Part shown: positions 4,172 through 63,929 of the stretch, piece by piece | Layout of the letters: each line of letters starts with the position of its first letter | Position numbering within the stretch: position 1 is the stretch's first letter | Source of the DNA: Hydrolagus colliei | Lineage: Eukaryota | Assembly: GCA_035084275.1 (NCBI GenBank) | Contig: CM068757.1 | Location: forward strand, 15,872,001-15,936,000 | Direction of reading: 5' to 3' | Length of the DNA stretch: 64,000 nucleotides | Program-made: the position numbers and the translations under genes | Notes under the pieces: generated by a model | Databases searched by the model: none | What the model saw: the letters and a program-made list of their open reading frames with translations, nothing else | Told to the model about the DNA's origin: nothing

Positions 4172-4213
4172 CATTCACCACAGAGCCATCGACAACCTTC
4201 TCTACAACCACAG
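4172..4213 (+). CDS. Type A PTS micro-exon, 42 nt: (A)FTTEPSTTFSTTT (uses second AG of a former NAGNAG acceptor)
   Basis: gttgtcaacag|CATTC...CCACAG|gtagtt; the same variant follows each Gypsy copy. Confidence 0.55.
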
Positions 4214-7200
4214 GTAGTTGTGTTATTATCAGTCCTGGAAACCTTGGCAAACTTCACTTCAATACAGAGTCCTCGTAAAAATAGCCACTATGATAACTTA
4301 TCCTCTATTTCTACTGAAATTTGATGCAATATATTTCTCATCATTGCATTCTAACACCAACAACTGCAACAGCAGCAGCCCCCACTACAATAACAGGTAA
4401 ACAAAGAACAAATTCCAACTCTCCATTCCAGAACAAACATCTTATTAACTATAAACTTCCATTGTATATTTGCCATCCTGTAAGAATGCAGCCTCTATGA
4501 TCATTACACAAACGATGTGTCCTGTCCCTTATGTCCTACTGGATTCACATGGACCACATTTTTAAATGTACGTTAGATATTGGGTTTCTTTCTTCTTGTT
4601 ATTGGTGATGGAGGGAAACAGCTGATATTAATCCTGCAGCAGTCACCAGCTTCTACCCATTTTATGGTTAGTGCCCGGCAGACATCACTTCCAAATCTTG
4701 TTGAATGTATAACCACAGGAATTGTGCCACTAACTATTCAAAGGAGCCTCTTCGTGCGATGTTCCGACTTGCTTCATTCATTCACTCATGTTTTTCGACT
4801 CAATTGTACATCCTTCTATTTACTGCAGGCGATGTCCAGAACACACCAGCAAGTAAGTGTTGTCTTCACACACCTTGTGCTACGGGGATGTAGGAAGATA
4901 TTAAACAGATGATTAATTTGATCTTGAGGGGTTTATCTTTTGAAACTCGATGAATGATTTAGCAGACTTGAACATCAGACATGTGCACAAGATCACATTT
5001 GCTAAGCAATGCCTCTTATCTAATATTGTCAGCAGCATTCCCCACAGAGTCTTCGACAACATTCTCTACAACAACAGGTATTTGTGAAATTTTCAGTCTT
5101 GGTGTCTTCATCAATCTTTACTTTGATACAAAACAGCAACCATCATATGCTAACCTCGAATTCTGTTGAAGGTTGATGCAATATATTTCTCCTCAACCTC
5201 TTACTTTCTAGCACCAACAACTAAAACATCAACAACCCCCTCTACGACAGCAGCTAAACAAAGAACAACTTCCAACTCTACATTTCCTGAGCAAACATCT
5301 ACTTGATTGTCTTCACATTTCTCTATTACTGTCACAATCGCCCTCCTTTAACTCATTGTTATCTCATTCTCTACGGTTTCCACAGGATGCGCACGCATGT
5401 CTTCATCAACAACCACCACTGAAACTGGTGAGGAACAGCACATTTCTACAGACACAACTGTTACATATCACATAGAGAAATCAGGCTACAAGAATCCTGC
5501 CATTGGCTTTGCCCAGAACAGCAGCCACTCTCCCAGTATCAATGCCAAACACTAGCTCAAACTTCAGCTTCAAGCAACTGAAAGAGGAGAATCATCTGAA
5601 GCATTCAGTCCGATTGCTCCACATTTATTCCTTCAAATTCTCACTTTAGAGAAACATCAGAAAACACTCTGACGCAATGCTCAGCAACACTCTTCACTCC
5701 AACAACAGTTGTAGCCACATTAACTGCCTTTCACTCAACTACTTGAATTACCCATGCACACTTTGTCCAGAGCAGTCTCCAATGCCCATTTTTCCATTGA
5801 TACTATGTTGAATGGAAACACTTGAAGCTTGCTTCTGGAGGTTCCTGGACCAATCTTTCTCAAGAAGCAGCGCAGCTGCTAATGAACAACACACCTGGCA
5901 CTGCCACATTGCCTCTATTGTGTATCAATAGCAGCAGTAAACCACACGACCAGCCACTCCATTTTGTTTCCCTGCTGTGACATTAATTGTGCCCATTCAT
6001 GCTGCCAACTCCATTGAAAGACAAAAACTAGCTGGAAGAATCACATTCGTTTCTGTGCTTTCCAATCTTTCCAACTTTCTATTCCAACAGAAACATCAAC
6101 AGCCACGACTTCGACATCAGGTATACAAAGAGCAGAAGCTTCTCTCCTCCCATTTACGGTGTAATATCCCCTTTGACCACCTGTGATTCAAACTTCCATT
6201 AACTATTTGCCATCCTGTAAGAATGTATCCTCTGTGAGCATTAGACAAATGAAATGTCCTTTCCCTTATGTCCAGCTGGAATCACACAGCACTTTTTCAC
6301 ACGTACTTTAGTTATTGGGTTTCTTTCTTCTTGTTAGTGCTGATGGAGGGAAACAGCCAATATTAACCTTGCAGCAGATACCAGCTTCTGCCCATTACCT
6401 GGTGATCGCAGGGCCAGAAACATTTCCAAATCTTGTTGAGGGCGTAACCACAGGAATTGTGTCGCGAGATATTGAAAGGAGACTCTCAGCATGATGTTGT
6501 AACTTGACTCATTCATTCACATTTTTCCACTCAATTCTAAACCCTTCGATCTACTGCAGACATTGCCATGGACAGAGCAATAAGAAAGGTGGCACTAGCA
6601 CAGATAGTGCTTCCGGGATGTAGAAAGATATCAAACAGATGATTGAATTGAACTTCAAGCGGTTTTCTTTTGAAATTTGATGAGTGATTTAGAAGAACTG
6701 CACATTATTCTTGTGCACCAGATCATTTTTGCTAAGCAATCTCTCGTTTCCAATGTTGTCAGCAGCATTCACCTCACAGGCATCGACAACCTTCTCTACA
6801 ACCACGGGTATTTGTGTTATTGTCATTCTTGGTGCTTTCATTCAATACAGCGTCATCGTAAAAATAGCCACTATGATAAATTAACCTCTATTGCTACTAA
6901 TATTTGATGCAATATATTTCTAGTCAGACATGATAAATACCACTTTTTATTTTGCAGCACCAACAACTGCAACATCAACAATACCCACAACAACAACAGG
7001 TAAACAAGGAACAACTTCCCACTCTCCATTCCAGAACAAACATCTACTTGATTGTCTTCACTTTTCTCTATTAAAGTCACAATCGCGCTCTTCATTGTTA
7101 TCTCTTTTCCTATTGTTTCTATTTGATGCGCACGCATGTCTTCATCAACAACCACCACTGAAACTGGTGAGGAACAGCACATTTCTACAGACACAACTGT

Positions 7201-10200
7201 TACATATCACATAGAGAAATCAGGCTACAAGAATCCTGCCATTAGCTTTGCCCACAACAGCAGCCACTCTCCCAGTATCATTGCCAAACACTAGCTCAAA
7301 CTTCAGCTTCAAGCAACTGAAAGAGGAGAATCATCTGAAGCATTCAGTCCGATTGCTCCACATTTATTCCTTCAAATTCTCACTTTAGAGAAACATCACA
7401 AAACACTCTGACACAATGCTCAGCAACACTGTTCACTCCAATAACAGTTGTAGCCACATTAACTGCCTTTGATTCAACTACTCGAATTACCCGTGTACAC
7501 TTTGTCCAGAGCAGTCTCCAATGCCCATTTTGCCATTGATACTATGTTGAATGGAAACACTTGAAGCTTCCTTCTGGAGGTTCCTAGACCAATCTTTCTC
7601 AAGAAACAGCGCAGCTGCTAATGACCAACACACCTGCACTGGCACAATGCCTCTATCGTGTATCAACAGCAGCAGTAAACCACACGACCAGCCACTCCAT
7701 TTTGTTTCCCTGCTGTGACATTAATTGTGCCCATTCATGCTGCCAACTCCATTGAAAGACAAAAACTGGCTGAAAGAATCACATTCATTTCTGTGCTTTC
7801 CAATCTTTCCAACTTTCTATTCCGACAGAAACATCAACAGCCACGACTTTGATATCAGGTATAAACGAGCAGAAGCTTCTCTCTTCCCATTTACGGTACA
7901 ATGTCCTCTGTGTCCACCTGTGATTCAAACTTCCATTAACTATTTGCCATCCTGTAAGAACACAGCCTCAATGAGCATTAGACAAACGATATGTCCTTTC
8001 CACTATGTCCTGCAAGAATCACATAGACCATTTTTTCACGTGTAATTTAAATATTGGATTTCTTTCTTCTTGTTAGTGCTGCTGGAGGGAAACAGCCAAT
8101 TTTATCCCTGCAGCAGATACCAGCAGCGGACACCATTACCTGGTGACCGCTGGGCAAGAAACATTTCCAAATCTTGTTGAGGGCACAACCACAGGAATTG
8201 AGTCACTAGATATTGAAAGGAGACTCTTTCATGACTTAGCATGATGCTGTAACTTGCCTCATTCATTCACGTTTTTCCACTCAATTGTAAAACCTTCGAT
8301 GTACTGCAGACATTGTCATGCACAGACCAATGAGAAGGTTGTGTGTTCACACAGCTAGTGCTACCAGCATGTAGAAAGATATTAAACAGATGATTGTGTT
8401 CAACTTGAAGCTTTTTTTTTTCAAATTTGATGAGTGATTTAGGAGAACTGCACATTATACTTGTGCACCAGATCACTTTTGCTAAGCAGCGTCTCTTTTC
8501 CAATGCTGTCAGCAGCATTCACCACAGAGCCATCGACAACTTTCTCAACAACCACAGTTATTTGTGTTACTGTCAGTGCCTTTGTCAACCTTCACTTCAA
8601 TACAATGTCCTCGTAAGAATAGCCACTATGATAACTTAACCTCTATTTCTACTAAAAGTTGATGCAATATGTTTCTCATCATTACATTCTAGCACCAACA
8701 ACAACTACTACAACAGCAGCCCCCACTACAATAACAGGTAAACAAAGAACAAATTCCAACTCTCCATTCCAGAACAAACATCTTATTAACTATAAACTTC
8801 CATTGTATATTTGCCATCCTGTAAGAATGCAGCCTCTATGATCATTACACAAACGATGTGTCCTGTCCCTTATGTCCTACTGGATTCACATGGACCACAT
8901 TTTTAAATGTACGTTAGATATTGGGTTTCTTTCTTCTTGTTATTGGTGATGGAGGGAAACAGCTGATATTAATCCTGCAGCAGTCACCAGCTTCTACCCA
9001 TTTTATGGTTAGTGCCCGGCAGACATCACTTCCAAATCTTGTTGAATGTACAACCACAGGAATTGTGCCACTACCTATTCAAAGGAGCCTCTTCGTGCGA
9101 TGTTGCGACTTGCTTCATTCATTCACTCACGTTTTTCGACTCAATTGTACATCTTCTATTTACTGCAGGCGATGTCCAGAACACACCAGCAAGTAAGTGT
9201 TGTCTTCACACACCTTGTGCTACGGGGATGTAGGAAGATATTAAACAGATGATTAATTTGATCTTGAGGGGTTTATCTTTTGAAACTCGATGAATGATTT
9301 AGCAGACTTGAACATCAGACATGTGCACAAGATCACATTTGCTAAGCAATGCCTCTTATCTAATATTGTCAGCAGCATTCCCCACAGAGTCTTCGACAAC
9401 ATTCTCTACAACAACAGGTATTTGTGAAATTTTCAGTCTTGGTGTCTTCATCAATCTTTACTTTGATACAAAACAGCAACCATCATATGCTAACCTCGAA
9501 TTCTGTTGAAGGTTGATGCAATATATTTCTCCTCAACCTCTTACTTTCTAGCACCAACAACTAAAACATCAACAACCCCCTCTACGACAGCAGCTAAACA
9601 AAGAACAACTTCCAACTCTACATTTCCTGAGCAAACATCTACTTGATTGTCTTCACATTTCTCTATTACTGTCACAATCGCCCTCCTTTAACTCATTGTT
9701 ATCTCATTCTCTACGGTTTCCACAGGATGCGCACGCATGTCTTCATCAACAACCACCACTGAAACTGGTGAGGAACAGCACATTTCTACAGACGCAACTG
9801 TTACATATCACATAGAGAAATCAGGCTACAAGAATCCTGCCATTGGCTTTGGCCAGAACAGCAGCCACTCTCCCAGTATCAATGCCTGGCTCAAACTTCA
9901 GCTTCAAGCAACTGAAAGAGGAGAATCATCTGAAGCATTCAGTCCGATTGCTCCACATTTATTCCTTCAAATTCTCACTTTAGAGCAACATCAGAAAACA
10001 CTCTGACACAATGCTCAGCAACACTCTTCACTCCAACAACAGTTGTAGCCACATTAACTGCCTTTCACTCAACTACTTGAATTACCCATGCACACTTTGT
10101 CCAGAGCAGTCTCCAATGCCCATTTTTCCATTGATACTATGTTGAATGGAAACACTTGAAGCTTGCTTCTGGAGGTTCCTGGACCAATCTTTCTCAAGAA

Positions 10201-28200: not shown

Positions 28201-31200
28201 ATGTATACTTTGTCCAGAGCAGTCTCCAATGCCCATATTTCCATTGATACTATTTTGAATGGAAACACATGAAGCTTGCTTCTGGAGGTTCCTGGAACAA
28301 TCCTTTTCAAGAAGCAGCACAGCTGCTAATGAACAACACACCTGGCACTGCCACATTGCCTCTATCGTGCATCAATAGCGGCAGTAAACCACACAACCAG
28401 TCACTCCATTTTGTTTCCCTGCTGTGACATTAATTGTGCCCATTCATGCTGCTAACTCCATTGAAAGACAAAAAGTAGCTGGAAGAATCACATTCGTTTC
28501 AGTGCTTTCCAATTTTTCCAACTTTATATTCCAACAGAAACATCAACAGCCACGACTTCGACATCAGGTACACAAAGAGCAGAAGCTTCTCTCCTCCCAT
28601 TTACAATGCAATATCTCCTTTGTCCACCTGTGATTCAAACTTCCATTATCTATTTGCCATCCTGTAAGAATGTAGCCTCTATGAGCATCAGATTAATGAT
28701 ATGACCTTTCCCTTATGTCCTGTTGGAATCACATGGACCACTTTTTTAGATAGGGTTTCTTTCTTCTTGTTTGTGCTGATGGAGTTAAACAGCCAATTTT
28801 AACCCTGTGGTAGATACCAGCTTCTACCCGTTACCTGATAACCACTGTGCCATAAACATTTCCAAATCTTGTTGCGGGCATAACCACAGGAATTGTGCCA
28901 ATAGACATTGAAAGGAGACTCTTAGCATGATGCTGTAACTTGCCTCGTTCATTTACGTTTTTCCACTCAATTGTAAAACCTTCGATGTACTGCAGACATT
29001 GTCATGGAAACACCAATAAGAAAGTTGTGTATTCACACAGCTAGCACTACCAGGATGTAGAACGATATCAAACAGATAATTCAATTGAACTTGAAGGGGT
29101 TTTCTTTTGAAATTTGATGAGTGATTTAGGAGAACTGCACATTATTCTTGTGCACCAGATCACTTTTGCTAAGCAATGTCTCTTTTTCAATGTTGTCAGC
29201 AGAATTCACCACAGAGCCATCGACAACCTTCTCTACAACCACAGGTATTTGTGTTATTGTCAGTCCTGGTGCCTTCGTCAACCTTCAATTCAAAACAGTG
29301 TCCTCGTAAATATAGCCACTATGATATCTTAACCACTATTGCTACTGAAAGTTGATGCAATATATTAAACAGATGATTGAATTGAACTGTGTGATATCTC
29401 TGGGACTACAATTATCACACATGTTCACGCTGCAATGTTCTGGGAAACGACTGCACACATCATGTGATTTATTTACATTTATTTCCACGGTCACTAGATG
29501 GCGCTATCACGGCTCCTCCCTCCTTAATGAAGAAATTATGAAAAAGTTACAATTACTGACATTCAAAACACGATGCTATGTACAATTGTTTTTCTACATA
29601 TGTACAATTTATAAATACATACGTACAATTTATGTATATTATCATGTTCAAACTGTGACACAGCCAATGAAAATTCAAACTTGACTTCTGGTTTCCTACT
29701 TTCCCTGTCCAAAAGTTTTAGGACTCATGGTAGCACTCGGACTTTTAGAACTCATGGTAACACTCGGACTTGCCATGTGTCCAGTCTGGTATTCATCTTG
29801 ACTTTCACTCCTAGTCTCCAGTTACTCAGTCAGGCTCTTGACTATCACCTGGAACTAAACCCTCACCTTCATTCACACTTGAATTCTGGTTTTCTGTTAA
29901 GTCCTCTGTTACCATTACTGACTTGTTCATTGGTCTAAAACTATTTGGTTCATTAGATTTATCCATTTCTCTCCACTCTTCCGGTACTTGTGTAGGTAAG
30001 ATGTGATCAATATGGACAAATCTGAGTTTGCCACTTTCAAACATCCTGACCAAATAGGTGCGCGGTCCACATACTTTCACTAATCTTCCTGGTACCCACT
30101 TTACCCATTTGTGATGATGGTTCTTCACTTTAACTTTTTTATTTATCTCCATCTTTCTGTCTTTCACCCTTACTCCAGCATGGTTCTCTCTCTGCCTCTC
30201 CTGTTTTCCATCTACCATTTGTGCTAAATTGGGATACAACAATGAAAATCTTGTTCTCGGGTGTCTTTTTAGGAACACGTCAGCCGGTGTTCTGCCTGTA
30301 GTGGTGTGAAGTGTCTTACGATACGTTATCAGAAAGTTGGCTGGTTTGTGAGGCAATGATAATTGACTTTGGGGTTGCATCTCGCATTTGCTAACCTAGC
30401 GTGCGTTTGACAATTTGCACATGGCGCTCCGAAGCACCATTCAAAGCTGGATGGTATGCAGTGTGCTTCACACCATTCTTTTCCATGCATTGCGCGAACT
30501 CTTCTGAACAGAACTGTGGTCCATTGTCAGACACGATTTCCTCTGGAAATCCATATGAAGCAAACGACCCTCTAACAATATCCAGTTTTGCTAGATATTG
30601 TTGTGTTCATCGGAAACACCTCAACCCACTTGGAATGACAATGTATCACAATGAACAACTACTATCCATCTAGATCAGCAAAATCTATCTGTAACCTTTG
30701 CCACACTCTGGCTGGCCATTTCCAGGACCGTAGTGGTACTGTTAGTGGACTCCTTCCAACCGACTCACATACACTACACTGTTTTACTGTGTTTTCAATG
30801 TATTTATCCAACCCTGGCCACCATAAGTAGTTCTAGCTAGACTCTTGGTCAGACACATCCCTCGGCGTTGATCATGAAGATCACCGAAAAACTGTTCTCT
30901 GTACCTTTCAGGGATAACAACTCTAGCTCCCCACATGACACATCCTTGGTCATTTGACAATTCATGTCTCCTAACAAAGTATGGCCTAATTTCTTCTTCT
31001 GTCTCAGTTATATGACTAGGCCACCCACTCACAATATAGTCATGCACCTTGGATAAAATCCTGTCCCTACGAGTTGTCTTGCTGATGTCACTTGATGTGA
31101 CCGGCAGCTACTCAATATGGGAAAAATAGAACACATCTTCCCTGTTGGATTTCATTTCTGATGCTAAGGGTAACCTCGACATTGCATCGGCATTACCATG

Positions 31201-34200
31201 GTCTGCTGACCTACGATATTGTAAGTCGTACTGGTATGCTGACAAGATCAACGACCATCTTTGCATTCTGGCTGCTGCTAGAGTAGGTACCTGTGATTTT
31301 GGATTTAGGATTGCTGTCAAAGGTTTATGGTCTGTTTCAATGATGAAATTGCGACCATATAGTATTTGTGGAATCTCCTAGCTCCAAAAATCAAGGCCAA
31401 AGCTTCTCTCTCTATTTCGGCGTAGTTTTTCTCACGACTACTCAGGGTTCTAGAAGCGAACGCTGTCAGTCTCTCTGCCCCTGTTTCGAATACATGAGAG
31501 ATAACTGCACCAACCCCGTATGGGGGGGCGTCACATGCTAGCTTGATGGTCTTTGTGACATCATAGTGTACCAGCATTGTACCATCTATTAGATGTTTTT
31601 TACACGACTTGAAAGCCTGGTCACATTCACGTGTCCATTTACATGGCACATCTTTCTTCAAAAGCTCATCCAAGGGGTGTATAAAGGTTGACAAATTTGG
31701 AATGAATTTTCCATAATAATTCAACAATCCCAAGAATGATCGTAGCTCAGATGTGTTTCTGGGAATGGGCGCGTTCCTGATCGCATTGACCTTACTCTGA
31801 GTTGGGTGCAACCCATCTTTGTCTACCTTGAGCCCTAGGTACTCTAAAGACTCTTTAAACATCTCACATTTGTGAGCCTTGACGCGTACTTGGAGTTTCT
31901 CTAACCTTTGTTACACCATGTGTAGCCTTTCGTCATCAACCTGCCTATTTGGCGCAGAGATGACTATGTCATCAAGTTAGCATATTACCCCATCGATTCC
32001 CTCTAGAATCTGAGTCATGAACCCTTGGAAAATTCCTGGGCTTGACGCAACGCCAAATGGTAGCCTATTGTATTGATACAGGCCCATATGAGTGTTGATA
32101 GTCAAGTACGCCTTTGACTTCTCATCTAGCTCTAACTGTTAATAGACGTTTGACAAGTCCATTTTAGAACATACTTTACCACCTACCAATGTGTTGAACA
32201 AATCTTCTACATTTGGTAACGTGTCAGGTGGACTACACTCCAGAACTCGATTCACTGTTACCTTGTAGTCCCCACAGATTCTGATACTACCGTCAGATTT
32301 TGGAACTACAACAATGGAAGTAGTCCAATTACTTTGTTGTACTTTACTGATAATGTTCTCCTTTTCCAGTCTTTTCAGTTCTTTTTCTACTTTTTCTCTC
32401 ATTGCGTATGGCACTGGGCGTGGCTTATAGTGCCTTGTACGTGGGCCTTGCTTCACCTTGCACTCCTAAACTTGCTTTGTATCCGCTGATGGGTGCACCG
32501 GATTCACTAAACACCGTTGAATGCTTTTTTTCCCTCTCTTCCTGTGTTGTGAACGAGATTTGCACAGGGAAAATTTCTTGCCAATCTAATTTTAGCGAGT
32601 TCATCCAATTTCTACCAAGTAATACTGGTTTTTCTCACTTCACCACAAGAATTGGCAAATCTGCACATTGATCCTTGTATTTAACTGGAACACACACTCT
32701 ACCCAAAACTGGGATGATCTCTCCTCCATAGTTGCGCAGCTCGACCCTTGCTGTTTGTAGCTTATTTTTGCTCAACTTTTCTCGGTGCAGTTTTTCAGAC
32801 ACCACACTGACTGCTGCTCCAGTATCAACTTCCATGATTACTGGGACTCCATCCAATGTTACTTGGACCTTGATGCTATGCAATTTGCTACTGGATGCTT
32901 TTGTGTTGTAGATCATGTTGATCTCCACTGGCTCCTCAGAGTCCTCACTCTCCTGGTGTCGCTCAACCGTATGCAGAAACTGACGTCTTTTCTTGACCGC
33001 ATTCGTCCGCTTCGACTTGAAACAAGCCTTTGCAAGATGCCCAGTCTTATGGCACGAATATCACTCCACTTTCGTCAAAAGGCAAGATTGTGCTGGATGA
33101 GAACCCAGACATCGATAGCATGACTTTGAACTCGTCCCGCTACTCTTCCCTCGTGGTCGATTCACAAGTGCTTTGAATTTCACTTTGCACACCTGCAGCT
33201 TGTTAACCTCCCCCACTGTTAGGCAATAACTTGCTGGAACTTCTTTTGAATCTCTCTCAGCCATGTCCATAGACAAGGCAGTTTTACATGCTAACTCAAA
33301 TGTTAGCTGTGACATTGTCATTAATTTGCTTTGGATACGGTCGCTCTTCAGTCTGCACACAAACCTATCTCGTAATGCAAGGTCCTGGAAATCTCCAAAA
33401 TTGCAGTGTATCGACAGCTTTTTCAATGCTACGAAAAAACTGCCAATGGTTTCCTCTGGTAATTGACATCTGGTACCAAATCGGTAACTCTCTGCAATCT
33501 CTAATGGCTTTGGGTCATAGTGTTCTGTAAGCTTTTCAAGGATGTCCTTTAATGGGGTGTCCTTAGGCTTAGTTGGGGTTAACAAATTCTTCACTGTTTC
33601 ATACACATCGGGACCCACTTCTGTCAGAAAGATTGCTCTCATTCTTTCTTGCACTGCTGTATTTACACTTCCAGAATTATCTTCAGCAGCTTCAATTTCA
33701 ACAATATTATTGGCAGCAAAGAACATCTCCAAACGCTCAATCTAAGCACTAAACATTTCCCGGCTTTGTTGAAACTCACCCAATTGTCCGATGTATCCGA
33801 TGGGAGTCTTCATTTGGGGATTTTTTTTATCAGTACCACCACACGTGAACACAAACCTTACTGGATTTGTAGCTCTCAATCAAAATGAAAGTATTCACAG
33901 ACCTCAAGGCACTTTGTAGAGACCTTCTCCTACAAACAGACATAGCTAGGGAATCCACTATCCCATCCTCGTCGCCAATTTGTGATATATCTGGGACTAC
34001 AAGTATCAGAAACGTTCAGGCTGCAATGTTATGGAAAACAACTGCACATATCATGTGGTTTATTTACATTTCTATACACTGGTCAGCAGATGGCACTCTC
34101 ACAAACCTGAAGTTTCTTTTGAAATTTGATGATGCTTGAGGAGAACTGCACATTATACTTGTGCACCAGATCATTTTTGCTAAGCAATCTCTCTTTTCCA

Positions 34201-46200: not shown

Positions 46201-49200
46201 AGGTATTAAACAGATGATTAATTTGATCTTGAGGGGTTTATCTTTTGAAACTCGATGAATGATTTAGCAGACTTGAACATCAGACATGTGCACAAGATCA
46301 CATTTGCTAAGCAATGCCTCTTATCTAATATTGTCAGCAGCATTCCCCACAGAGTCTTCGACAACATTCTCTACAACAACAGGTATTTGTGAAATTGTCA
46401 GTCTTGGTGTCTTCATCAATCTTTACTTTGATACAAAACAGCAACTATCATATGCTAACCTCGAATTCTGTTGAAGGTTGATGCAATATATTTATCCTCA
46501 ACCTCTTACTTTCTAGCACCAACAACTAAAACATCAACAACCCCCTCTACGACAGCAGCTAAACAAAGAACAACTTCCAACTCTACATTTCCTGAGCAAA
46601 CATCTACTTGATTGTCTTCACATTTCTCTATTACAGTCACAATCGCCCTCCTTTAACTCATTGTTATCTCATTCTCTACGATTTTCACAGGATGCGCACG
46701 CATGTCTTCATCAACAACCACCACTGAAACTGGTGAGGAACAGCACATTTCTACAGACGCAACTGTTACATATCACATAGAGAAATCAGGCTACAAGAAT
46801 CCTGCCATTGGCTTTGCCCAGAACAGCAGCCACTCTCCCAGTATCAATGCCAAACACTAGCTCAAACTTCAGCTTCAAGCAACTGAAAGAGGAGAATCAT
46901 CTGAAGCATTCAGTCCGATTGCTCCACATTGATTCCTTCAAATTCTCACTTTAGAGAAACATCAGAAAACACTCTGACACAATGCTCAGCAACACTGTTC
47001 ACTCCAACAACAGTTGTAGCCACATTAACTGCCTTTCACTCAACTACTTGAATTACCCATGCACACTTTGTCCAGAGCAGTCTCCAATGCCCATTTTTCC
47101 ATTGATACTATGTTGAATGGAAACACTTGAAGCTTGCTTCTGGAGATTCCTGGAAGAATCCTTTTCAAGAAGCAGCACAGCTGCTAATGAACAACACACC
47201 TGGCACTGCCACATTGCCTCTATTGTGTATCAATAGCAGCAGTAAACCACATCACCAGCCACTCCATTTTGTTTCACTGCTGTGACATTAATTGTGCCCA
47301 TTCATGCTGCTAACTCCATTGAAAGATAAACACTGGCTGAAAGAATCACATTCCTTTCTGTGCTTTCCAATCTTTCCAACTTTCTATTCCAACAGAAACA
47401 TCAACAGCCACGACTTCGACATCAGGTACACAAAGAGCAGAAGCTTCTCTCCTCCCATTTGTGGTGCAAACTTCCATTATCTATTTGCCATCCTGTAAGA
47501 ATGTAGCCCCTATGAGCATTAGACTAATGATATGACCTTTCCCTTATGTCCTGTTGGAATCACATGGACCACTTTTTTAGATATTGGGTTTCTTTCTTCT
47601 TGTTAGTGCTGATGGAGTTAAACAGCCAATTTTAACCCTGTGGTAGATACCAGCTTCTACCCGTTACCTGATAACCACTGTGCCATAAACATTTCCAAAT
47701 CTTGTTGCGGGCATAACCACAGGAATTGTGCCAATAGACATTGAAAGGAGACTCTTAGCATGATGCTGTAACTTGCCTCATTCATTTACGTTTTTCCACT
47801 CAATTGTAAAACCTTCGATGTACTGCAGACATTGTCATGGAAACACCAATAAGAAAGTTGTGTATTCACACAGCTAGCACTACCAGGATGTAGAACGATA
47901 TCAAACAGATAATTCAATTGAACTTGAAGGGGTTTTCTTTTGAAATTTGATGAGTGATTTAGGAGAACTGCACATTATTCTTGTGCACCAGATCACTTTT
48001 GCTAAGCAATGTCTCTTTTCCAATGTTGTCAGCAGAATTCACCACAGAGCCATCGACAACCTTCTCTACAACCACAGGTATTTGTGTTATTGTCAGTCCT
48101 GGTGCCTTCGTCAACCTTCAATTCAAAACAGTGTCCTCGTAAATATAGCCACTATGATATCTTAACCACTATTGCTACTGAAAGTTGATGCAATATATTA
48201 AACAGATGATTGAATTGAACTGTGTGATATCTCTGGGACTACAATTATCACACATGTTCACGCTGCAATGTTCTGGGAAACGACTGCACACATCATGTGA
48301 TTTATTTACATTTATTTCCACGGTCACTAGATGGCGCTATCACGGCTCCTCCCTCCTTAATGAAGAAATTATGAAAAAGTTACAATTACTGACATTCAAA
48401 ACACGATGCTATGTACAATTGTTTTTCTACATATGTACAATTTATAAATACATACGTACAATTTATGTATATTATCATGTTCAAACTGTGACACATCCAA
48501 TGAAAATTCAAACTTGACTTCTGGTTTCCTACTTTCCCTGTCCAAAAGTTTTAGGACTCATGGTAGCACTCGGACTTTTAGAACTCATGGTAACACTCGG
48601 ACTTGCCATGTGTCCAGTCTGGTATTCATCTTGACTTTCACTCCTAGTCTCCAGTTACTCAGTCAGGCTCTTGACTATCACCTGGAACTAAACCCTCACC
48701 TTCATTCACACTTGAATTCTGGTTTTCTGTTAAGTCCTCTGTTACCATTACTGACTTGTTCATTGGTCTAAAACTATTTGGTTCATTAGATTTATCCATT
48801 TCTCTCCACTCTTCCGGTACTTGTGTAGGTAAGATGTGATCAATATGGACAAATCTGAGTTTGCCACTTTCAAACATCCTGACCAAATAGGTGCGCGGTC
48901 CACATACTTTCACTAATCTTCCTGGTACCCACTTTACCCATTTGTGATGATGGTTCTTCACTTTAACTTTTTTATTTATCTCCATCTTTCTGTCTTTCAC
49001 CCTTACTCCAGCATGGTTCTCTCTCTGCCTCTCCTGTTTTCCATCTACCATTTGTGCTAAATTGGGATACAACAATGAAAATCTTGTTCTCGGGTGTCTT
49101 TTTAGGAACACGTCAGCCGGTGTTCTGCCTGTAGTGGTGTGAAGTGTCTTACGATACGTTATCAGAAAGTTGGCTGGTTTGTGAGGCAATGATAATTGAC

Positions 49201-52200
49201 TTTGGGGTTGCATCTCGCATTTGCTAACCTAGCGTGCGTTTGACAATTTGCACATGGCGCTCCGAAGCACCATTCAAAGCTGGATGGTATGCAGTGTGCT
49301 TCACACCATTCTTTTCCATGCATTGCGCGAACTCTTCTGAACAGAACTGTGGTCCATTGTCAGACACGATTTCCTCTGGAAATCCATATGAAGCAAACGA
49401 CCCTCTAACAATATCCAGTTTTGCTAGATATTGTTGTGTTCATCGGAAACACCTCAACCCACTTGGAATGACAATGTATCACAATGAACAACTACTATCC
49501 ATCTAGATCAGCAAAATCTATCTGTAACCTTTGCCACACTCTGGCTGGCCATTTCCAGGACCGTAGTGGTACTGTTAGTGGACTCCTTCCAACCGACTCA
49601 CATACACTACACTGTTTTACTGTGTTTTCAATGTATTTATCCAACCCTGGCCACCATAAGTAGTTCTAGCTAGACTCTTGGTCAGACACATCCCTCGGTG
49701 TTGATCATGAAGATCACCGAAAAACTGTTCTCTGTACCTTTCAGGGATAACAACTCTAGCTCCCCACATGACACATCCTTGGTCATTTGACAATTCATGT
49801 CTCCTAACAAAGTATGGCCTAATTTCTTCTTCTGTCTCAGTTATATGACTAGGCCACCCACTCACAATATAGTCATGCACCTTGGATAAAACCCTGTCCC
49901 TACGAGTTGTCTTGCTGATGTCACTTGATGTGACTGGCAGCTCCTCAATATGGGAAAAATAGAACACATCTTCCCTGTTGGATTTCATTTCTGATGCTAA
50001 GGGTAACTTCGACATTGCATCGGCATTACCATGGTCTGCTGACCTACGATATTGTAAGTCATACTGGTATGCTGACAAGATCAATGAACATCTTTGCATT
50101 CTGGCTGCTGCTAGAGTAGGTACCTGTGATTTTGGATTTAGGATTGCTGTCAAAGGTTTATGGTCTGTTTCAATGATGAATTTGCGACCATACAGTATTT
50201 GTGGAATCTCCTAGCTCCAAAAATCAAGGCCAAAGCTTCTCTCTCTATTTGGGCGTAGTTTTTCTCACGACTACTCAGGGTTCTAGAAGCGAACGCCCCT
50301 GTTTCGAATGCATCAGAGATAACTGCACCAACCCCGTATGGGGGGGCGTCACATGCTAGGCTTGATGGTCTTTGTGACATCATAGTGTACCAGCATTGTA
50401 CCATCTATTAGATGTTTTTTACACGACTTGAAAGCCTGGTCACATTCACGTGTCCATTTACATGGCACATCTTTCTTCAAAAGCTCATCCGAGGGGTGTA
50501 TAAAGGTTGACAAATTTGGAATGAATTTTCCATAATAATTCAACAATCCCAAGAATGATCGTAGCTCAGATGTGTTTCTGGGAATGGGCGCGTTCCTGAT
50601 CGCATTGACCTTACTCTGAGTTGGGTGCAACCCATCTTTGTCTACCTTGAGCCCTAGGTACTCTAAAGACTCTTTAAACATCTCACATTTGTGAGCCTTG
50701 ACGCATACTTGGAGTTTCTCTAACCTTTGTTACACCATGTGTAGCCTTTCGTCATCAACCTGCCTATTTGGCGCAGAGATGACTATGTCATCAAGTTAGC
50801 ATATTACCCCATCGATTCCCTCTAGAATCTGAGTCATGAACCCTTGGAAAATTCCTGGGCTTGACGCAACGCCAAATGGTAGCCTATTGTATTGATACAG
50901 GCCCATATGAGTGTTGATAGTCAAGTACGCCTTTGACTTCTCATCTAGCTCTAACTGTTAATAGACTTTTGACAAGTCCATTTTAGAACATACTTTACCA
51001 CCTACCAATGTGTTGAACAAATCTTCTACGTTTGGTAACGTGTCAGGTGGACTACACTCCAGAACTCGATTCACTGTTACCTTGTAGTCCCCACAGATTC
51101 TGATACTACCGTCAGATTTTGGAACTACAACAATGGAAGTAGTCCAATTACTTTGTTGTACTTTACTGATAATGTTCTCCTTTTCCAGTCTTTTCAGTTC
51201 TTTTTCTACTTTTTCTCTCATTGCGTATGGCACTGGGCGTGGCTTATAGTGCCTTGTACGTGGGCCTTGCTTCACCTTGCACTCCTAAACTTGCTTTGTA
51301 TCCGCTGATGGGTGCACCGGATTCACTGAACACCGTTGAATGCTTTTTTTCCCTCTCTTCCTGTGTTGTGAACGAGATTTGCACAGGGAAAATTTCTTGC
51401 CAATCTAATTTCAGCGAGTTCATCCAATTTCTACCAAGTAATGCTGGTTTTTCTCACTTCACCACAAGAATTGGCAAATCTGCACATTGATCCTTGTATT
51501 TAACTGGAACACACACTCTACCCAAAACTGGGATGATCTCTCCTCCATAGTTGCGCAGCTCGACCCTTGCTGTTTGTAGCTTATTTTTGCTCAACTTTTC
51601 TCGGTGCAGTTTTTCAGACACCACACTGACTGCTGCTCCAGTATCAACTTCCATGATTACTGGGACTCCATCCAATGTTACTTGGACCTTGATGCTATGC
51701 AATTTGCTACTGGATGCTTTTGTGTTGTAGATCATGTTGATCTCCACTGGCTCCTCAGAGTCCTCACTCTCCTGGTGTCGCTCAACCGTATGCAGAAACT
51801 GACGTCTTTTCTTGACCGCATTCGTCCGCTTCGACTTGAAACAAGCCTTTGCAAGATGCCCAGTCTTATGGCACGAATATCACTCCACTTTCGTCAAAAG
51901 GCAAGATTGTGCTGGATGAGAACCCAGACATCGATAGCATGACTTTGAACTCGTCCCGCTACTCTTCCCTCGTGGTCGATTCACAAGTGCTTTGAATTTC
52001 ACTTTGCACACCTGCAGCTTGTTGATCTCCCCCACTGTTAGGCAATAGCTTGCTGGAACTTCTTTTGAATCTCTCTCAGCCATGTCCATAGATAAGGCAG
52101 TTTTGCATGCTAACTCAAATGTTAGCTGTGACATTGTCATTAATTTGCTTTGGATACGGTCGCTCTTCAATCTGCACACAAACCTATCTCGTAATGCAAG

Positions 52201-55200
52201 GTCCTGGAAATCTCCAAAATTGCAGTGTATCGACAGCTTTTTCAACCCTACGAAAAAACTGCCAAAGTTTTCCTCTGGTAATTGACATCTGGTACCAAAT
52301 CGGTAACTCTCTGCAATCTCTAATGGCTTTGGGTCATCGTGTTCTGTAAGCTTTTCAAGGATGTCCTTCAATGGGGTGTCCTTAGGCCTAGTTGCGGTTA
52401 ACAAATTCTTCACTGTTTCATACAGATCGGGACCCACTTCTGTCAGAAAGATTGCTCTCATTCTTTCTTGCACTGCTGTATTTACACTTCCAGAATTATC
52501 TTCAGCAGCTTCAATTTCAACAATATTATTGGCAGCAAAGAACATCTCCAAACGCTCAATCTAAGCACTAAACATTTCCCGGCTTTGTTGAAACTCACCC
52601 AATTGTCCGATGTATCCGATGGGAGTCTTCATTTGGGGATTTTTTTTATCAGTACCACCACACGTGAACACAAACCTTACTGGATTTGTAGCTCTCAATC
52701 AAAATGAAAGTATTCACAGACCTCAAGGCACTTTGTAGAGACCTTCTCCTACAAACAGACATAGCTAGGGAATCCACTATCCCATCCTCATCGCCAATTT
52801 GTGATATATCTGGGACTACAAGTATCAGAAACGTTCAGGCTGCAATGTTATGGAAAACAACTGCACATATCATGTGGTTTATTTACATTTCTATACACTG
52901 GTCAGCAGATGGCACTCTCACAAACCTGAAGTTTATTTTGAAATTTGATGATGCTTTAGGAGAACTGCACATTATACTTGTGCACCAGATCATTTTTGCT
53001 AAGCAATCTCTCTTTTCCAATGTTGTCAACAGCATTCACCACAGAGCCATCGACAACCTTCTCTACAACCACAGGTAGTTGTGTTATTATCAGTCCTGGA
53101 AACTTTGGCAAACTTCACTTCAATACAGAGTCCTCGTAAAAATAGCCACTATGATAACTTATCCTCTATTTCTACTGAAATTTGATGCAATATATTTCTC
53201 ATCATTGCATTCTAACACCAACAACTGCAACAGCAGCAGCCCCCACTACAATAACAGGTAAACAAAGAACAAATTCCAACTCTCCATTCCAGAACAAACA
53301 TCTTATTAACTATAAACTTCCATTGTATATTTGCCATCCTGTAAGAATGCAGCCTCTATGATCATTACACAAACGATGTGTCCTGTCCCTCATGTCCTAC
53401 TGGATTCACATGGACCACATTTTTAAATGTACGTTAGATATTGGGTTTCTTTCTTCTTGTTATTGGTGATGGAGGGAAACAGCTGATATTAATCCTGCAG
53501 CAGTCACCAGCTTCTACCCATTTTATGGTTAGTGCCCGGCAGACATCACTTCCAAATCTTGTTGAATGTATAACCACAGGAATTGTGCCACTAACTATTC
53601 AAAGGAGCCTCTTAGTGCTATGTTGCGACTTGCTTCATTCATTCACTCACGTTTTTCGACTCAATTGTACATCCTTCTATTTACTGCAGGCGATGTCCAG
53701 GACTCACCACCAAGTAAGTGTTGTCTTCACACACCTTGTGCTACGGGGATGTAGGAAGATATTAAACAGATGATTAATTTGATCTTGAGGGGTTTATCAT
53801 TTGAAACTCGATGAATGATTTAGCAGACTTGAACATCAGACATGTGCACAAGATCACATTTGCTAAGCAATGCCTCTTATCTAATATTGTCAGCAGCATT
53901 CCCCACAGAGTCTTCGACAACATTCTCTACAACAACAGGTATTTGTGAAATTGTCAGTCTTGGTGCCTTCATCAATCTTTACTTTGATACAAAACAGCAA
54001 CCATCATATGCTAACCTCGAATTCTGTTGAAGGTTGATGCAATATATTTCTCCTCAACTTCTTACTTTCTAGCACCAACAACTACAACATCAACAATCCC
54101 CAGTACACCAGGTAAGCAAAGAACTTCCAACTCTGCATTTGACCCGCTTTGTACAATTTAACATCGATCGTCTTTCCTCCACCACACCCAATCAATGATC
54201 CGCTCTACCTTCCCTCACCTCCACAATATTGCCTGACTCCACCATTACCTCATCCCTGATACCGCTGAAACTCTCATTCATGTGTTGCTGACATCCAGGC
54301 TCACTATGCCGACGTCTTGCTTGTCGACCTTCCTAATTCATCCATCCATAGTTTGCAGATAATCCAGAACTCTGCAGTTTTCAGAGTGTCCTCTCCAATC
54401 TAAGCTTTGTGATCCCATCTCCCTCATCTTCACCTGACTCTGTTTACTCCCCATCATCTAGAGAATCCAATTGAATATCCTGCTCTTCACATTCAATTCC
54501 CTCCATGGCCTCGGCCCACCCTATATTTGCAACCTTATCTGCCTGCCCCCTCCGCTCAGGAGGCTCCGGCCTGTTCCACATTCCCCAACTCACTCTGCCA
54601 TTGGCGGGCGAGCCTTCTGACACTCTGCTCCCAACCTCTGTAACTCCAACCCGCATTTCCTCCACCTTGCCCCTTCCCTGGCTTCCTTCAAATCCCGCCT
54701 CAAGACTCTCCTCTTTGACTGCCCCATCAATCACCCCTAAATCCCCCACTTCCACTCCACCCTCCCTGATCCTGACCCCATCTTATGTCTGAAACAATGA
54801 CTGGCCAGCACCTTGGACATCCTCCTAACGTGAAAGGCGATTTATAAGTCTATATTATTATTGTTGTAATCGGAATATTTCAATCGGGGAATGAATCGGG
54901 GCCCGGGTTTTGTGACCTATGTGCCCAGCCCTCAATGATAACTAATGTCCAGTTAATGCAGCTTCCTCTCTGGTTCAATGTGATCGAATGCTATAGAAAA
55001 TGACTTCATGTTATTATTAATGTGTTTTCCCTTTCCAGTGCCCTGTGCAATGGGTGCACACAACACGACATTGACCTTCCAGGGTTGTGCAGTGAACGTC
55101 ACAGTCAGTCATTGTGAAGGATATTGCTATTCATACAATGAGTAAGAGAGCCATTGGTGGGGACATTACAAATTTTGCAAAACTATTTGCCAAACATTGC

Positions 55201-56145
55201 AGGGAAATTTGACAAATTTTGCTCCAACAAAAAATTGCAGGGAGCTGATCCACCAAACACCAGTATGGTTTGCCTTGCTTCAGGGTATCCCTGACTCCTG
55301 TTACTTGGGACAGCTACGGCACACAGACACAGAGAGATAGACTCAGAGAGAGAGAGAGACTCAAGACAGATAGAGAGAAACAGACATAGACAGACAGGCA
55401 GGGAGGCAGGCAGGCAGACATACTCAGAGATAGATGCAGACTCAGAGAGAGAGAGAGAGACTCAGATAGACAGAGAGAGAGAGAGACTCAGATAGACAGA
55501 GAGAGAGAGAGAGACTCAGATAGACAGAGAGAGAGAGAGAGACTCAGAGAGAGATAGACTCCGACAGAGAGAGACAAAGAGAGACACAGACAGAGAGATA
55601 GAGAGAGAGTGACAGAGAGAGACTCAGAAAGAGAAAGAGACTGAGAAGGGGCAGAGAGAGACTCAGAGAGAGAGTGAGAGAAACTCAGACAGAGAGAGGC
55701 TCAGACAGAGAGACTCAGACAGACTCAGACAGAGAGACTCAGACAGAGAGACTCAGACAGAGAGACTCAGACACGCAGCCACCCAGAGACGCACTCAGAC
55801 ACACTCGGGGGCATGATTTTCTATTCGTCCATGTCATCAGCCAAATAGAGAGAGATCTGGAGAATGATGAGAGAGAGCTGGGTAGTAAATCACCCCCCAA
55901 AAGATGAGGATCAGGGCTCCCCCACAGCAATAACCAAAGCGGTTTGTTAACATTGCAGATTTGATTCCCGGACAAAGCAAAGCATAATCACCTGTAGGTG
56001 CTGTGTGGCGCAGAAAAAAAGCATCAAGAAAACTCGTCTGTTGTGCCACGGCAACATGGAAACACTTGTGTACTATCAGCCCAAAAGTTGTGAATGTCAA
56101 CAGCAAGTCTGCAGTGCTCCACCTTCAAGCAGCCATTACAGTTAA
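4172..56145 (+). CDS. MUC6: 3' portion of a spliced gel-forming mucin gene, MUC6-like: micro-exon-encoded PTS domain joined directly to a C-terminal cystine knot (5' VWD region lies upstream of the window)
   Basis: About 73 AG..GT-bounded phase 1-1 Thr/Ser/Pro-rich micro-exons, then two exons that splice in frame to an 11-Cys cystine knot and TAA. A PTS joined to the knot with no VWD4/VWC in between is the MUC6 architecture. TLTFQGCAVNVTVSHCEGYCYS resembles the human MUC6 knot as I recall it (EITFKGCMANVTVTRCEGACIS). The mucin call is firm; orthology is not search-verified. Confidence 0.8.
5033..5077 (+). CDS. Representative type A micro-exon, 45 nt: (A)AFPTESSTTFSTTT
   Basis: atattgtcag|CAG...ACAG|gtattt; recurs at about 9373, 13688, 18003, 22308, 24894, 27480, 35074, 37662, 42001, 46338, 53894. 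Confidence 0.7.
5212..5253 (+). pseudogene. Pseudo-exon (type B) with lost donor
   Basis: Ends CAGCAG|ctaaac where paralogues have |gtaaac; 7 such copies. Confidence 0.65.
5386..5427 (+). CDS. Representative type C micro-exon, 42 nt: (G)CARMSSSTTTTET
   Basis: ggtttccacag|GATG...AACTG|gtgagg; good splice sites, phase 1-1; about 13 intact copies. Confidence 0.65.
6091..6120 (+). CDS. Representative type D micro-exon, 30 nt: (E)TSTATTSTS
   Basis: tttctattccaacag|AAAC...ATCAG|gtatac; variant (E)TSTATTLIS at 7829-7858; about 17 copies. Confidence 0.68.
6763..6807 (+). CDS. Type A variant micro-exon, 45 nt: (A)AFTSQASTTFSTTT
   Basis: gttgtcag|CAG...CACGG|gtattt; 6 copies. Confidence 0.6.
6958..6999 (+). 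CDS. Type B variant micro-exon, 42 nt: (A)PTTATSTIPTTTT
   Basis: ctttttattttgcag|CACC...ACAG|gtaaac; strong polypyrimidine tract. Confidence 0.78.
8513..8557 (+). pseudogene. Pseudo-exon (type A) with lost donor
   Basis: Ends CCACAG|ttattt where paralogues have |gtattt; 9 such copies. Confidence 0.65.
8693..8737 (+). CDS. Type B variant micro-exon, 45 nt: (A)PTTTTTTAAPTTIT
   Basis: attacattctag|CACC...TAACAG|gtaaac; one per short unit, 9 intact copies. Confidence 0.75.
11277..11318 (+). CDS. Type B micro-exon, 42 nt: (A)TTTKTSTTPSTTA
   Basis: ttactttctag|CAAC...CAGCAG|gtaaac; intact-donor version of the exon that is donor-dead at 5212-5253. Confidence 0.75.
29200..29244 (+). CDS. Type A variant micro-exon, 45 nt: (A)EFTTEPSTTFSTTT
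   Basis: gttgtcag|CAGAATT...CCACAG|gtattt; last exon before Gypsy copy 2, with a twin before copy 3 (about 48033-48077). Confidence 0.6.
29390..29511 (-). repeat. 3' LTR of Gypsy copy 2 (122 bp)
   Basis: Aligns to the 5' LTR with about 20 differences; adjacent polypurine tract (aaggagggaggagc on minus, 29512-29525). Confidence 0.9.
33960..33977 (-). promoter_or_regulatory. Primer-binding site, tRNA-Ser(GCT)-type
   Basis: Plus strand atcccatcctcgtcgcca, 3 nt inside the 5' LTR, equals the 3' end of vertebrate tRNA-Ser(GCT) plus CCA (recalled). Copy 3 has one mismatch and copy 1 has two. Confidence 0.8.
34104..48222 (+). repeat. Exon-intron tandem array 2 (6 long, 4 short, 1 truncated unit)
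   Basis: Markers at 37610, 41949, 46286 (periods 4339, 4337); same unit types as array 1. Confidence 0.95.
48223..52922 (-). mobile_element. Full-length decayed Ty3/Gypsy (Mag-like) element, copy 3 (4700 bp)
   Basis: LTRs 48223-48344 and 52800-52922; same flanks and lesions as copies 1 and 2. Confidence 0.96.
53894..53938 (+). CDS. Type A PTS micro-exon, 45 nt: (A)AFPTESSTTFSTTT
   Basis: ttgtcag|CAGCATT...ACAACAG|gtattt; phase 1-1. Confidence 0.7.
54073..54111 (+). CDS. Last PTS micro-exon, 39 nt: (A)PTTTTSTIPSTP
   Basis: ttactttctag|CACC...CACCAG|gtaagc; near-consensus donor; phase 1-1, in frame with the cystine-knot exon. Confidence 0.88.
54200..54868 (+). mobile_element. L2-clade LINE 3' fragment (intronic)
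   Basis: Degenerate HL.NIA.L..YL...AETLIH...TSRL and IQNSA ORF2 C-terminus; 3' tail cgtgaaaggcgatttataag followed by (tat/tgt)n. Confidence 0.8.
55039..55141 (+). CDS. MUC6: Mucin cystine-knot exon 1: (V)PCAMGAHNTTLTFQGCAVNVTVSHCEGYCYSYN(E)
   Basis: Acceptor ttttccctttccag|TG, donor GA|gtaaga; 103 nt, phase 1 to phase 2; CxGxC knot motif (CEGYC); two N-glycosylation sequons (NTT, NVT). Confidence 0.92.
55320..55805. repeat. AG-rich micro/minisatellite in the last mucin intron
   Basis: (ga)n with gactcaga/cagacaga motifs. Confidence 0.9.
55959..56145 (+). CDS. MUC6: Terminal mucin exon: (E)FDSRTKQSIITCRCCVAQKKSIKKTRLLCHGNMETLVYYQPKSCECQQQVCSAPPSSSHYS*
   Basis: Acceptor ttaacattgcag|A matches phase 2 of the previous exon. 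CxCC and CxC motifs complete 11 Cys. Stop TAA at 56143-56145. Confidence 0.92.
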
Positions 56146-56238
56146 GCAAACGGCCTGTGACGCCCCGCCACCCTCTACACCAGCAATGTTGCCGTTTTCT
56201 ACAGGATGAATTTGCGGTTTTTCCAAAACTTCATCGGG

Positions 56239-56244
56239 ATTAAA
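56239..56244 (+). terminator. Probable polyadenylation signal (ATTAAA) of the mucin gene
   Basis: Variant hexamer about 94 nt after the stop, followed by a T/GT-rich tract at about 56276-56345. Confidence 0.55.
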
Positions 56245-56427
56245 ATCAATGAGAGAAAAAGCCCATTCCTTCTCATTTACTTTTGTGCCTGTGATGTGTG
56301 TGTGTGTGTCTGCGTGTGTGTCTGTCTGTGTCTGTGTGTGTCTCACTGTCTGCATTCATGTGATTGCGTTTGAAATAGTTACAGTAAAATGCAGGAACGC
56401 TTAGCATTGCTGTGGGTAAAGGTGAAA

Positions 56428-56864: not shown

Positions 56865-57188
56865 CCACACTCCCAGGTCAGCGACATCATAGGTTAGAAC
56901 CTCTACACTGTGCGTCCATACTCCCAAGTCAGGATTAGAGACACAGTAAAGCTCCCTCTATATTGTGTGTCCACACACCCAGGTCAGGGTTAGAGAAACA
57001 GTAAAGCTCCCTCTGCACTGTGCATCTGTCCACACACCCAGGTCAGGGTTAGAGAAACAGTAAAGCTCCCTCTGCACTGTGCATCTGTCCACACACCCAG
57101 GTCAGGGTTAGAGAAACAGTAAAGCTCCCTCTGCACTGTGCATCTGTCCACACACCCAGGTCAGAGCTACAGTAATGCTCCCTCTTTA
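56865..57188. repeat. 59-bp minisatellite (ccacacacccaggtcagggttagagaaacagtaaagctccctctgcactgtgcatctgt)
   Basis: Exact units start at 56971, 57030 and 57089, with degenerate flanking units; related motif at about 62600-62750 and 63320-63400. Confidence 0.9.
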
Positions 57189-63729: not shown

Positions 63730-63929
63730 NNNNNNNNNNNNNNNNNNNNNNNNNNNNNNNNNNNNNNNNNNNNNNNNNNNNNNNNNNNNNNNNNNNNNNN
63801 NNNNNNNNNNNNNNNNNNNNNNNNNNNNNNNNNNNNNNNNNNNNNNNNNNNNNNNNNNNNNNNNNNNNNNNNNNNNNNNNNNNNNNNNNNNNNNNNNNNN
63901 NNNNNNNNNNNNNNNNNNNNNNNNNNNNN
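63730..63929. other. Assembly gap (200 N)
   Basis: Run of n characters flanked by G-rich low-complexity sequence. Confidence 0.99.

Follow-up and report, generated by a model that had tools for sequence, protein, structure and literature searches.

The window analysed here is a stretch of 64,000 nucleotides from Hydrolagus colliei (assembly GCA_035084275.1, contig CM068757.1; C24:15872001-15936000). Its sequence supports the presence of the 3' half of a MUC6 gene whose middle domain is encoded by an array of micro-exons. A preliminary description of the window had counted about 70 cassettes in a Pro/Thr/Ser-rich (PTS) domain. The array is larger, as it comprises 275 copies, of which 192 are flanked by both AG and GT, and it begins 70.6 kb upstream of the window. 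The strongest evidence for a real micro-exon design, and the observation that bears out the micro-exon PTS domain as first proposed, is an independent array under splice-site constraint in a sister paralog. Positions are given in window numbering, with negative numbers for positions upstream of the window start.

Domain structure and identity of the gene

The VWD1-3 exons, which the preliminary description had expected upstream of the window, were found 72–107 kb upstream on the + strand. A chain of 25 exons (C24:15765686-15800646) was traced with a profile built from MUC6-clade proteins. It has AG/GT borders throughout, contains no stop codon and ends in phase 1. Pfam VWD matches are located at C24:15765703, 15778364 and 15792692, and the chain encodes three N-terminal VWD-C8-TIL assemblies, as is typical of MUC6. 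A candidate signal exon at C24:15757453 is unconfirmed. In the VWD3 exon at C24:15793167-15793277 the motif VTY is present in place of VTC or VVC of the paralogs, and a conserved Cys may have been lost.

The 3' end of the gene is formed by two exons:

55039 to 55141, + strand: first cystine-knot exon, 103 nt, entered in phase 1 and left in phase 2
55959 to 56146, + strand: last coding exon with the remainder of the cystine knot and the stop codon; ATTAAA at 56239

The terminal chain 53897-53938 > 54073-54111 > 55039-55141 > 55959-56146 is a single open frame, so that the cassettes lead in frame into an intact cystine knot, as had been claimed. Of its 11 Cys residues, all (11/11) align with those of bird, caecilian and aardvark MUC6, at about 31–35% identity. 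The Pfam Cys_knot match on the 103-nt exon alone is below the cut-off (E 0.045), and a weak homologue search with the last knot exon returned no candidate. The knot score is 131, compared with 108–138 for knots of the MUC19 clade. Thus, the knot alone does not discriminate MUC6 from MUC19.

Among the 91 listed Pfam matches there is no VWD4 from C24:15796442 to the knot, and CysD was not found in the focal gene. Vertebrate MUC6 is built likewise, with VWD1-3, no VWD4, a PTS domain and a cystine knot. According to the accessible part of PMC4948705, MUC6 lacks the fourth VWD, its PTS domain is followed directly by the cystine knot and the gene is arranged head-to-head with MUC2. (Here and below, statements attributed to articles with PMC numbers refer to the parts of these articles that were accessible.) The arrangement in Hydrolagus is the same: three + strand MUC6-clade genes stand in tandem and face a MUC2-type gene on the - strand, which contains VWD4 and has its PTS domain in one giant exon.

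Phylogenetic analysis of D3 with FastTree (164 rows, midpoint root) placed the focal gene in the clade of named MUC6 proteins from birds, mammals, amphibians, lungfish, bichir and sturgeon with a support of 0.984. Rows with fewer than 240 positions were excluded, among them Callorhinchus milii A0A4W3HLM5. In a tree of 79 rows the focal gene groups with named MUC6 (support 1.0), apart from MUC2/5. In the 164-row tree the MUC19 rows form a separate clade (support 0.998) with the focal gene outside, which argues against a MUC19/spiggin grouping. The focal gene is on a long branch (0.68). Together, the upstream VWD1-3 chain and the D3 tree uphold the MUC6 identity that had been assigned from the window.

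The closest named protein to an upstream exon is a mucin-6-like protein of Callorhinchus milii (73% identity), a species with two Muc6 (Lang et al. 2016, PMC4948705). The focal exons are 60–88% identical to A0A4W3HLM5. This public model stops at D3 and contains neither PTS nor knot. The present analysis completes a gene that the public models compared cut at D3 and whose mucin domain escapes searches for long frames rich in Thr, Ser and Pro.

A long Thr/Ser-rich open frame is absent from the + strand between D3 and the knot, so the mammalian state with the PTS domain in one large exon does not apply. The only PTS-like coding sequence in this interval consists of cassettes of 24–45 nt in phase 1-1. 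Mammalian mucin domains are typically encoded by one long exon (PMC5789918), whereas the focal gene has up to 192 cassettes across 125 kb. A PTS domain in a single large exon is a gene-structure trait of mammalian MUC6 and not of the clade.

The cassette array and its splice sites

The complete array of about 125 kb extends from about -70,600 to 54,140 (C24:15801380-15926140). Cassettes were collected by fuzzy matching from seeds in the window, with acceptors and donors anchored separately. Three acceptors and three donors lacking a partner are excluded from the 275 copies. The in-window part of the array and its five families are as follows:

4172 to 54111, + strand: in-window part of the array, organised in higher-order units that measure about 2.6 kb or 4.3 kb
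4172 to 53938, + strand: family A, 42 nt, phase 1-1, e.g. FPTESSTTFSTTT; 32 copies in the window, 23 with AG and GT
4355 to 54111, + strand: family B, 39, 42 or 45 nt, phase 1-1, e.g. PTTTTTTAAPTTIT; 30 copies in the window, 20 intact
4829 to 53713, + strand: family C, 24 nt, phase 1-1, SVRNTAP or DVQNTPA; 28 paired copies in the window, 12 intact
5386 to 46732, + strand: family H, 42 nt, phase 1-1, CARMSSSTTTTET, one Cys; 17 copies in the window, 13 intact
6091 to 47425, + strand: family F, 30 nt, phase 1-1, TSTATTSTS or TSTATTLIS; 17/17 copies in the window intact

The higher-order units are composed of a core of about 0.86 kb (C-A-B) and an insert of about 0.88 kb (H-F). The median intron between cassettes is 432 nt.

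The preliminary description distinguished four families by size (30, 39, 42 and 45 nt). These size classes do recur throughout 4172-54111, but by sequence they represent three families (A, B and F), and families C (24 nt) and H (42 nt, one Cys) were missed. Nor does each segment have AG and GT, as had been stated: 60 of the 79 A, B and F copies in the window are intact, as are 85 of the 124 paired in-window copies of all five families. Over the whole array 83 of the 275 copies (30%) are splice-dead. A length divisible by three, also noted at first, is found in 270 of the 275 copies and is lost in five acceptor-dead H copies. The stop-free, Thr/Ser-rich reading in phase 1 described for the 30-, 39-, 42- and 45-nt segments was reproduced. 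The intact A, B and F cassettes joined in phase 1 encode 1,731 residues (66% Thr+Ser, 7% Pro) and those of all five families 2,383 residues (61% Thr+Ser), in both cases without a stop.

In family A the first and last copies in the window are 4172-4213 and 53897-53938. Nine copies have TT instead of GT. The acceptor is a tandem acceptor (+/-3 nt) and the donors are weak. A 36/42-nt segment located 19 nt 3' of A (8558-8612 and homologous sites) is open, has a length divisible by three and carries a good donor in 34 copies. It resembles an old duplicate of A and might act as a frameshifting extension or as a cassette used in a mutually exclusive manner. The gap of 19 nt is below intron size, and the segment was left unassigned.

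The first intact B copy is 6958-6999 and the last is 54073-54111. AG or GT is lost in ten B copies; the first copy (4355) lacks AG and the second (5212) lacks GT. A 48-nt cassette after B (28 copies) contains stops and was rejected as an exon. Intact C copies have GTAAGT donors, and the 16 other copies in the window are dead and drifted. Live H copies are 42 nt long in 30/30 cases over the whole array, and an insertion of +1, a single event, is found in five of the six acceptor-dead copies. Family F, with moderate donors, is intact in 37/37 paired copies over the array.

The splice scores are rough, being based on a matrix of 33 donors and 34 acceptors on which 13 held-out constitutive donors reach 2.6–10.1 bits. 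Donor scores are 2.2–3.7 bits in family F and 8–10 bits in 43 of the 44 intact B copies and in all intact C and H copies.

For comparison with chance expectation, strong cassettes (AG..GT segments of 15–60 nt) were listed with this matrix of splice sites of these genes. The + strand of the array yields 169 strong cassettes, 168 of them with a length divisible by three (distinct ones: 22/23). The - strand yields 38, of which 24 are divisible by three (distinct ones: 6/9), a caveat on the enrichment. In 712 kb of neighbouring sequence (both strands) there are 153 strong cassettes; 65 are divisible by three, 34 of these are also open and only 1/153 is divisible by three, open and at least 50% Thr, Ser and Pro. 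The excess of lengths divisible by three in the array is significant (Fisher p 5e-7 for distinct cassettes), with the caveat that copies are not independent. The raw copy numbers overstate the case, since few families were multiplied, the + strand list includes likely false cassettes and families A and F are missed. More telling is that, within the unique unit of about 1.75 kb, four Thr/Ser-rich families with open phase-1 reading are present at the PTS position of MUC6.

The sister MUC6 paralog is located 60 kb upstream of the focal gene (C24:15638843-15741291). Its array (C24:15672860-15740260) lies between its own phase-1 D3 and phase-1 knot exons and is composed of phase 1-1 cassettes of 24, 27 and 18 nt, with sequences unlike those of the focal gene. 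Starting from 20 seeds at least 60 cassettes were found and 60/60 are intact, including 40/40 found with AG and GT masked. Strong cassettes have a length divisible by three in 65/76 cases on the + strand and in 1/8 on the - strand. The invariant splice bases are variable at 0/16 positions compared with 115/136 in the flanks, where the figure is inflated by the pooling of dissimilar seeds. Furthermore, the sites are uniformly strong (donors 5–12 bits, acceptors 7–15 bits bar one). The cassettes encode 515 residues with 20% Pro, 17% Thr and 11% Ser. In the D3 tree branches of 0.04 and 0.05 connect this paralog to another C. milii protein. The domain encoded by these cassettes is rich in Pro instead of Thr and Ser, contains RPW motifs that recur along it, and may be a lightly glycosylated linker.

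Proposed modes of cassette splicing and array growth

We lean towards a reading in which the unit of the mucin variable number tandem repeat (VNTR) is an exon plus its intron, with most live cassettes included in the transcript and the weak ones included leakily. Gene identity, frames and counts are shown by the sequence, whereas expression, splicing and glycosylation are predictions. Of the intact cassettes, which number up to 192, the spliceosome would join the majority, giving a Thr/Ser-rich domain with a maximum of about 2,400 residues in a protein of up to about 3,650 residues. The cassette domain would be O-glycosylated. Polymer formation via D3 and the cystine knot is established for the gel-forming mucin family, and the two regions would form a polymer here as well. 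An open frame is kept whether the 103 B, C and H cassettes (2,528 aa) or the full set of 192 (3,626 aa) are included.

The array would grow through unequal recombination of blocks of 2.6–17 kb. With symmetric cassettes, gain, loss or death of a copy would keep the frame, and splice-dead copies would persist and be amplified anew in a process of birth and death. Differences in length would be chiefly allelic, and leaky skipping of weak A and F cassettes would occur to some extent as a by-product. Array blocks of 5–17 kb are 98–99.5% alike and the 83 dead copies trace to eight changed splice bases. Growth by blocks is also recorded by a long terminal repeat (LTR) retroelement, which we take to be of Ty3/Gypsy type from the order and motifs of its gag, protease, reverse transcriptase/RNase H and integrase-like pieces. 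In the window it is found at three positions:

1 to 4060, - strand: decayed LTR retroelement, intronic and antisense, starting 647 nt upstream of the window
29390 to 34102, - strand: second copy, its two LTRs 86% alike
48223 to 52921, - strand: third copy

Seven copies of the element occupy the same site of the repeat unit and are 98–100% alike, while the two LTRs within a copy are 84–86% alike. Most likely the element was therefore copied along with the array and not by transposition, and dead cassettes were amplified together with live ones. A dead A donor (53075 G>T) is also present in contigs of a public DNA run, possibly the source of the assembly, and is thus not an assembly slip. At 54140-54804, the last array unit together with about 0.65 kb of flank is one of three such copies (the others at about -28,600 and -61,000). 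The copies are identical across 1,804 nt, after which the two internal ones continue into truncated B copies.

Several observations weigh against inclusion of most cassettes. Family A donors score 0.0 or -1.7 bits, lower than 13/13 held-out constitutive donors, and the junction at 53938, named in the preliminary description for testing, relies on one of them. In 34 of 73 A copies a stronger, frameshifting cryptic donor is located 97 or 103 nt past the acceptor, and a strong donor 97 nt past the acceptor is present in 20/21 donor-dead A copies. Consequently, some cassettes may go unused and some outcomes would not be frame-safe. The earlier statement that any subset can be skipped without a frameshift has an exception in these donor-dead A copies, where use of the later donor would shift the frame.

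The splice dinucleotides of the focal gene are variable at 8/20 positions compared with 98/170 in the flanks (p 0.10), which is no significant constraint. Exons are not more conserved than introns in the three deepest subfamilies (54–86% vs 76–86%; subfamilies 76–84% alike). These comparisons thus do not show selection on the focal array. The codon-position counts (A live 6/1/4, B 5/3/3, F 4/2/1, C 5/2/0) are too few to be read. Additionally, family H would place 30 lone Cys in the domain, which to our knowledge is unusual for MUC6, and joining D3 directly to the knot with no cassette at all also stays in frame (1,243 aa). In DNA-like contigs of a public run over 52900-56300 the joints listed fall in common repeats, depths do not represent copy numbers and no joint is at a predicted splice site, which has no bearing on splicing either way.

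Combinatorial splicing is possible but rather doubtful as the main mode. In this reading, which is that of the preliminary description, each cell or molecule would contain a different subset of about 190 cassettes, and MUC6 would be polydisperse in one animal, in line with reports on Xenopus integumentary mucins and schistosome SmPoMuc. The phase symmetry, which may appear to suggest this, is inevitable in an array grown by exon duplication and therefore is no evidence for skipping or regulated splicing. The uniformly strong sites of the sister paralog resemble those of constitutive exons. In chicken MUC2 one variant has been characterised and no massive splicing was seen in infected gut (PMC3549977).

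A broader proposal is more doubtful still. It holds that combinatorial use of 60–190 symmetric micro-exons yields a polydisperse mucin in the MUC6 paralogs of cartilaginous fish, that the Cys cassette tunes lateral cross-links, that micro-exon PTS domains are ancestral for the MUC6 of jawed vertebrates and that the giant exon is derived in tetrapods. On this view ancestral micro-exons would be the reason for the early end, at D3 or just after it, of public MUC6 models from sharks, gar, sturgeon, bichir, lungfish and coelacanth. Such an end, at D3 or a short way past it, is seen in the public MUC6-clade models compared, which come from sharks, ray, chimaera, bichir, sturgeon, gar, lungfish and coelacanth. 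This fits hidden micro-exons but also assembly gaps or, in the shark paralog with four VWD, a protein that is truly short at this end. Should the combinatorial or ancestral reading be true, the evolution and splicing of a giant VNTR exon and of an exon-array VNTR could be compared side by side.

It is unlikely that the cassettes are former exons of a decaying array, most of them skipped or leading to frameshift and decay, and that the working product is a short MUC6 poor in PTS, in which D1-D3 and the knot are connected with few cassettes. The 30% of dead copies, the splice bases without significant constraint, the weak A donors, the frameshifting cryptic donors, the long branch of the gene and a third paralog that seems to be without PTS and knot would all agree with decay. 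However, nearly all sites of the 103 B, C and H cassettes have constitutive strength, no paired F copy is dead, N-terminus and knot are open with every knot Cys kept, and the live units have recently expanded. It is very improbable that the array is an intronic satellite whose AG/GT pairs arose by chance and were multiplied along with the repeat, none of it being spliced: just five sequence families underlie all copies and the scan also yields false cassettes (the 48-nt one with stops and the 38 on the - strand), but the background is one open cassette of this composition and length class per 712 kb against four families in a single unit, the phase fits both flanking exons, the location is that of the MUC6 PTS domain and the sister paralog has the same pattern in cassettes of different sequence and under clear constraint.

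Related mucins and neighbouring genes

A multi-exon PTS domain in MUC6 was not found in the literature searched, which covers few subscription journals; the gene models in the supplement of PMC4948705 may bear on this point. The earlier remark that no description of such an architecture was known for a MUC6-type gene agrees with this search. The exon-per-repeat design is known from other mucins and is new for MUC6 within the same literature. The mechanism itself is not new. The focal gene shares with Muc13, MucXS and FIM the placement of repeat units on separate symmetric exons, at the level of a genomic signature.

For the FIMs, splicing was seen in cDNA, whereas the focal gene is known from genomic sequence alone. 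Joba and Hoffmann are said to have reported in 1996 that each FIM-B.1 repeat is a class 1-1 exon and is alternatively spliced. FIM-B.1 and FIM-C.1 of Xenopus laevis are secreted mucins like the focal gene product and are polydisperse within an individual; the polymorphism of FIM-C.1 has been attributed to alternative splicing (PMC7177656).

MucXS of Xenopus tropicalis (Otogl) also has three VWD, a mucin domain made up of multiple exons and, at the C terminus, a cystine knot. It is not placed in the MUC6 clade in the article cited here, and its mucin domain consists of 34 PTS and 39 Cys-rich repeats, that is, it contains Cys-rich sub-domains as opposed to one Cys per unit here (PMC5789918). In chicken Muc13 each PTS repeat is encoded by one exon and the exons are near-identical, but the protein is a transmembrane SEA mucin with at least 12 repeats of 20 aa in one family, compared with five families here. 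Splice-controlled length and an ancestral design were proposed for it in 2006 (PMC1552070). Both ideas become testable in a gel-forming mucin, and with up to 192 near-identical exons of 24–45 nt the focal gene is an extreme splicing substrate. SmPoMuc and other micro-exon genes of Schistosoma mansoni have tandem symmetric exons of 27 bp and vary through skipping, but encode small parasite proteins of an unrelated family with 0–20 repeats (PMC4015677). The PTS domain of chicken MUC2 extends over exons 32-44 (PMC3549977), so that even MUC2 is not always single-exon.

The caecilian MUC6 isoforms X4 and X3 differ solely in an insertion of nine residues near the PTS start, the size of a 27-nt cassette. 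A nine-residue repeat in the tail of a basking-shark model was considered as a paralog cassette and rejected, as 114/500 shuffles scored as well.

Two solutions for a mucin VNTR are present in one cluster: a giant exon in the MUC2-type genes and exon arrays in two MUC6 paralogs. The MUC2-type gene (C24:15495448-15517462, - strand) has its PTS domain in a single frame of 7,338 codons, which is free of gaps and starts with a CysD-like segment, and the next MUC2/5-type gene has a single PTS frame of 2,340 codons. The third MUC6-clade gene (C24:15572744-15638800) has a repeated D2 region and four VWD assemblies. PTS array, knot and last exon were not found in it, and its shark orthologues in RefSeq end 4–8 residues past D3. 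It may be a conserved mucin without PTS and knot, resembling ovomucin in the absence of the PTS.

Scans of 120 kb with two MUC19-like genes on C13, and of C24:16995-17055 kb, detected no micro-exon array. By tblastn score alone, the C13 genes are the better candidates for the MUC19 clade. One of them (C13:4386152-4409741, - strand) has tandem units of about 1.47 kb in its middle. Every unit contains an exon that matches a single module of a ray protein, so that multi-exon middle domains are represented by a third type. At C24:16631155-16682454 and 16999425-17014008 there are two VWD genes, on opposite strands and with identical per-exon scores, which probably reflect either a recent inverted duplication or duplication in the assembly.

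No tRNA is present in the window. Downstream of the focal gene, the segments 56914-57164, 58994-59100, 60380-61000 and 63730-63929 include a 59-nt tandem repeat (4.3 copies) and a gap of 200 N. The same region contains what are presumably, as judged by eye, a tRNA-like head of a short interspersed element and a remnant resembling a long interspersed element.

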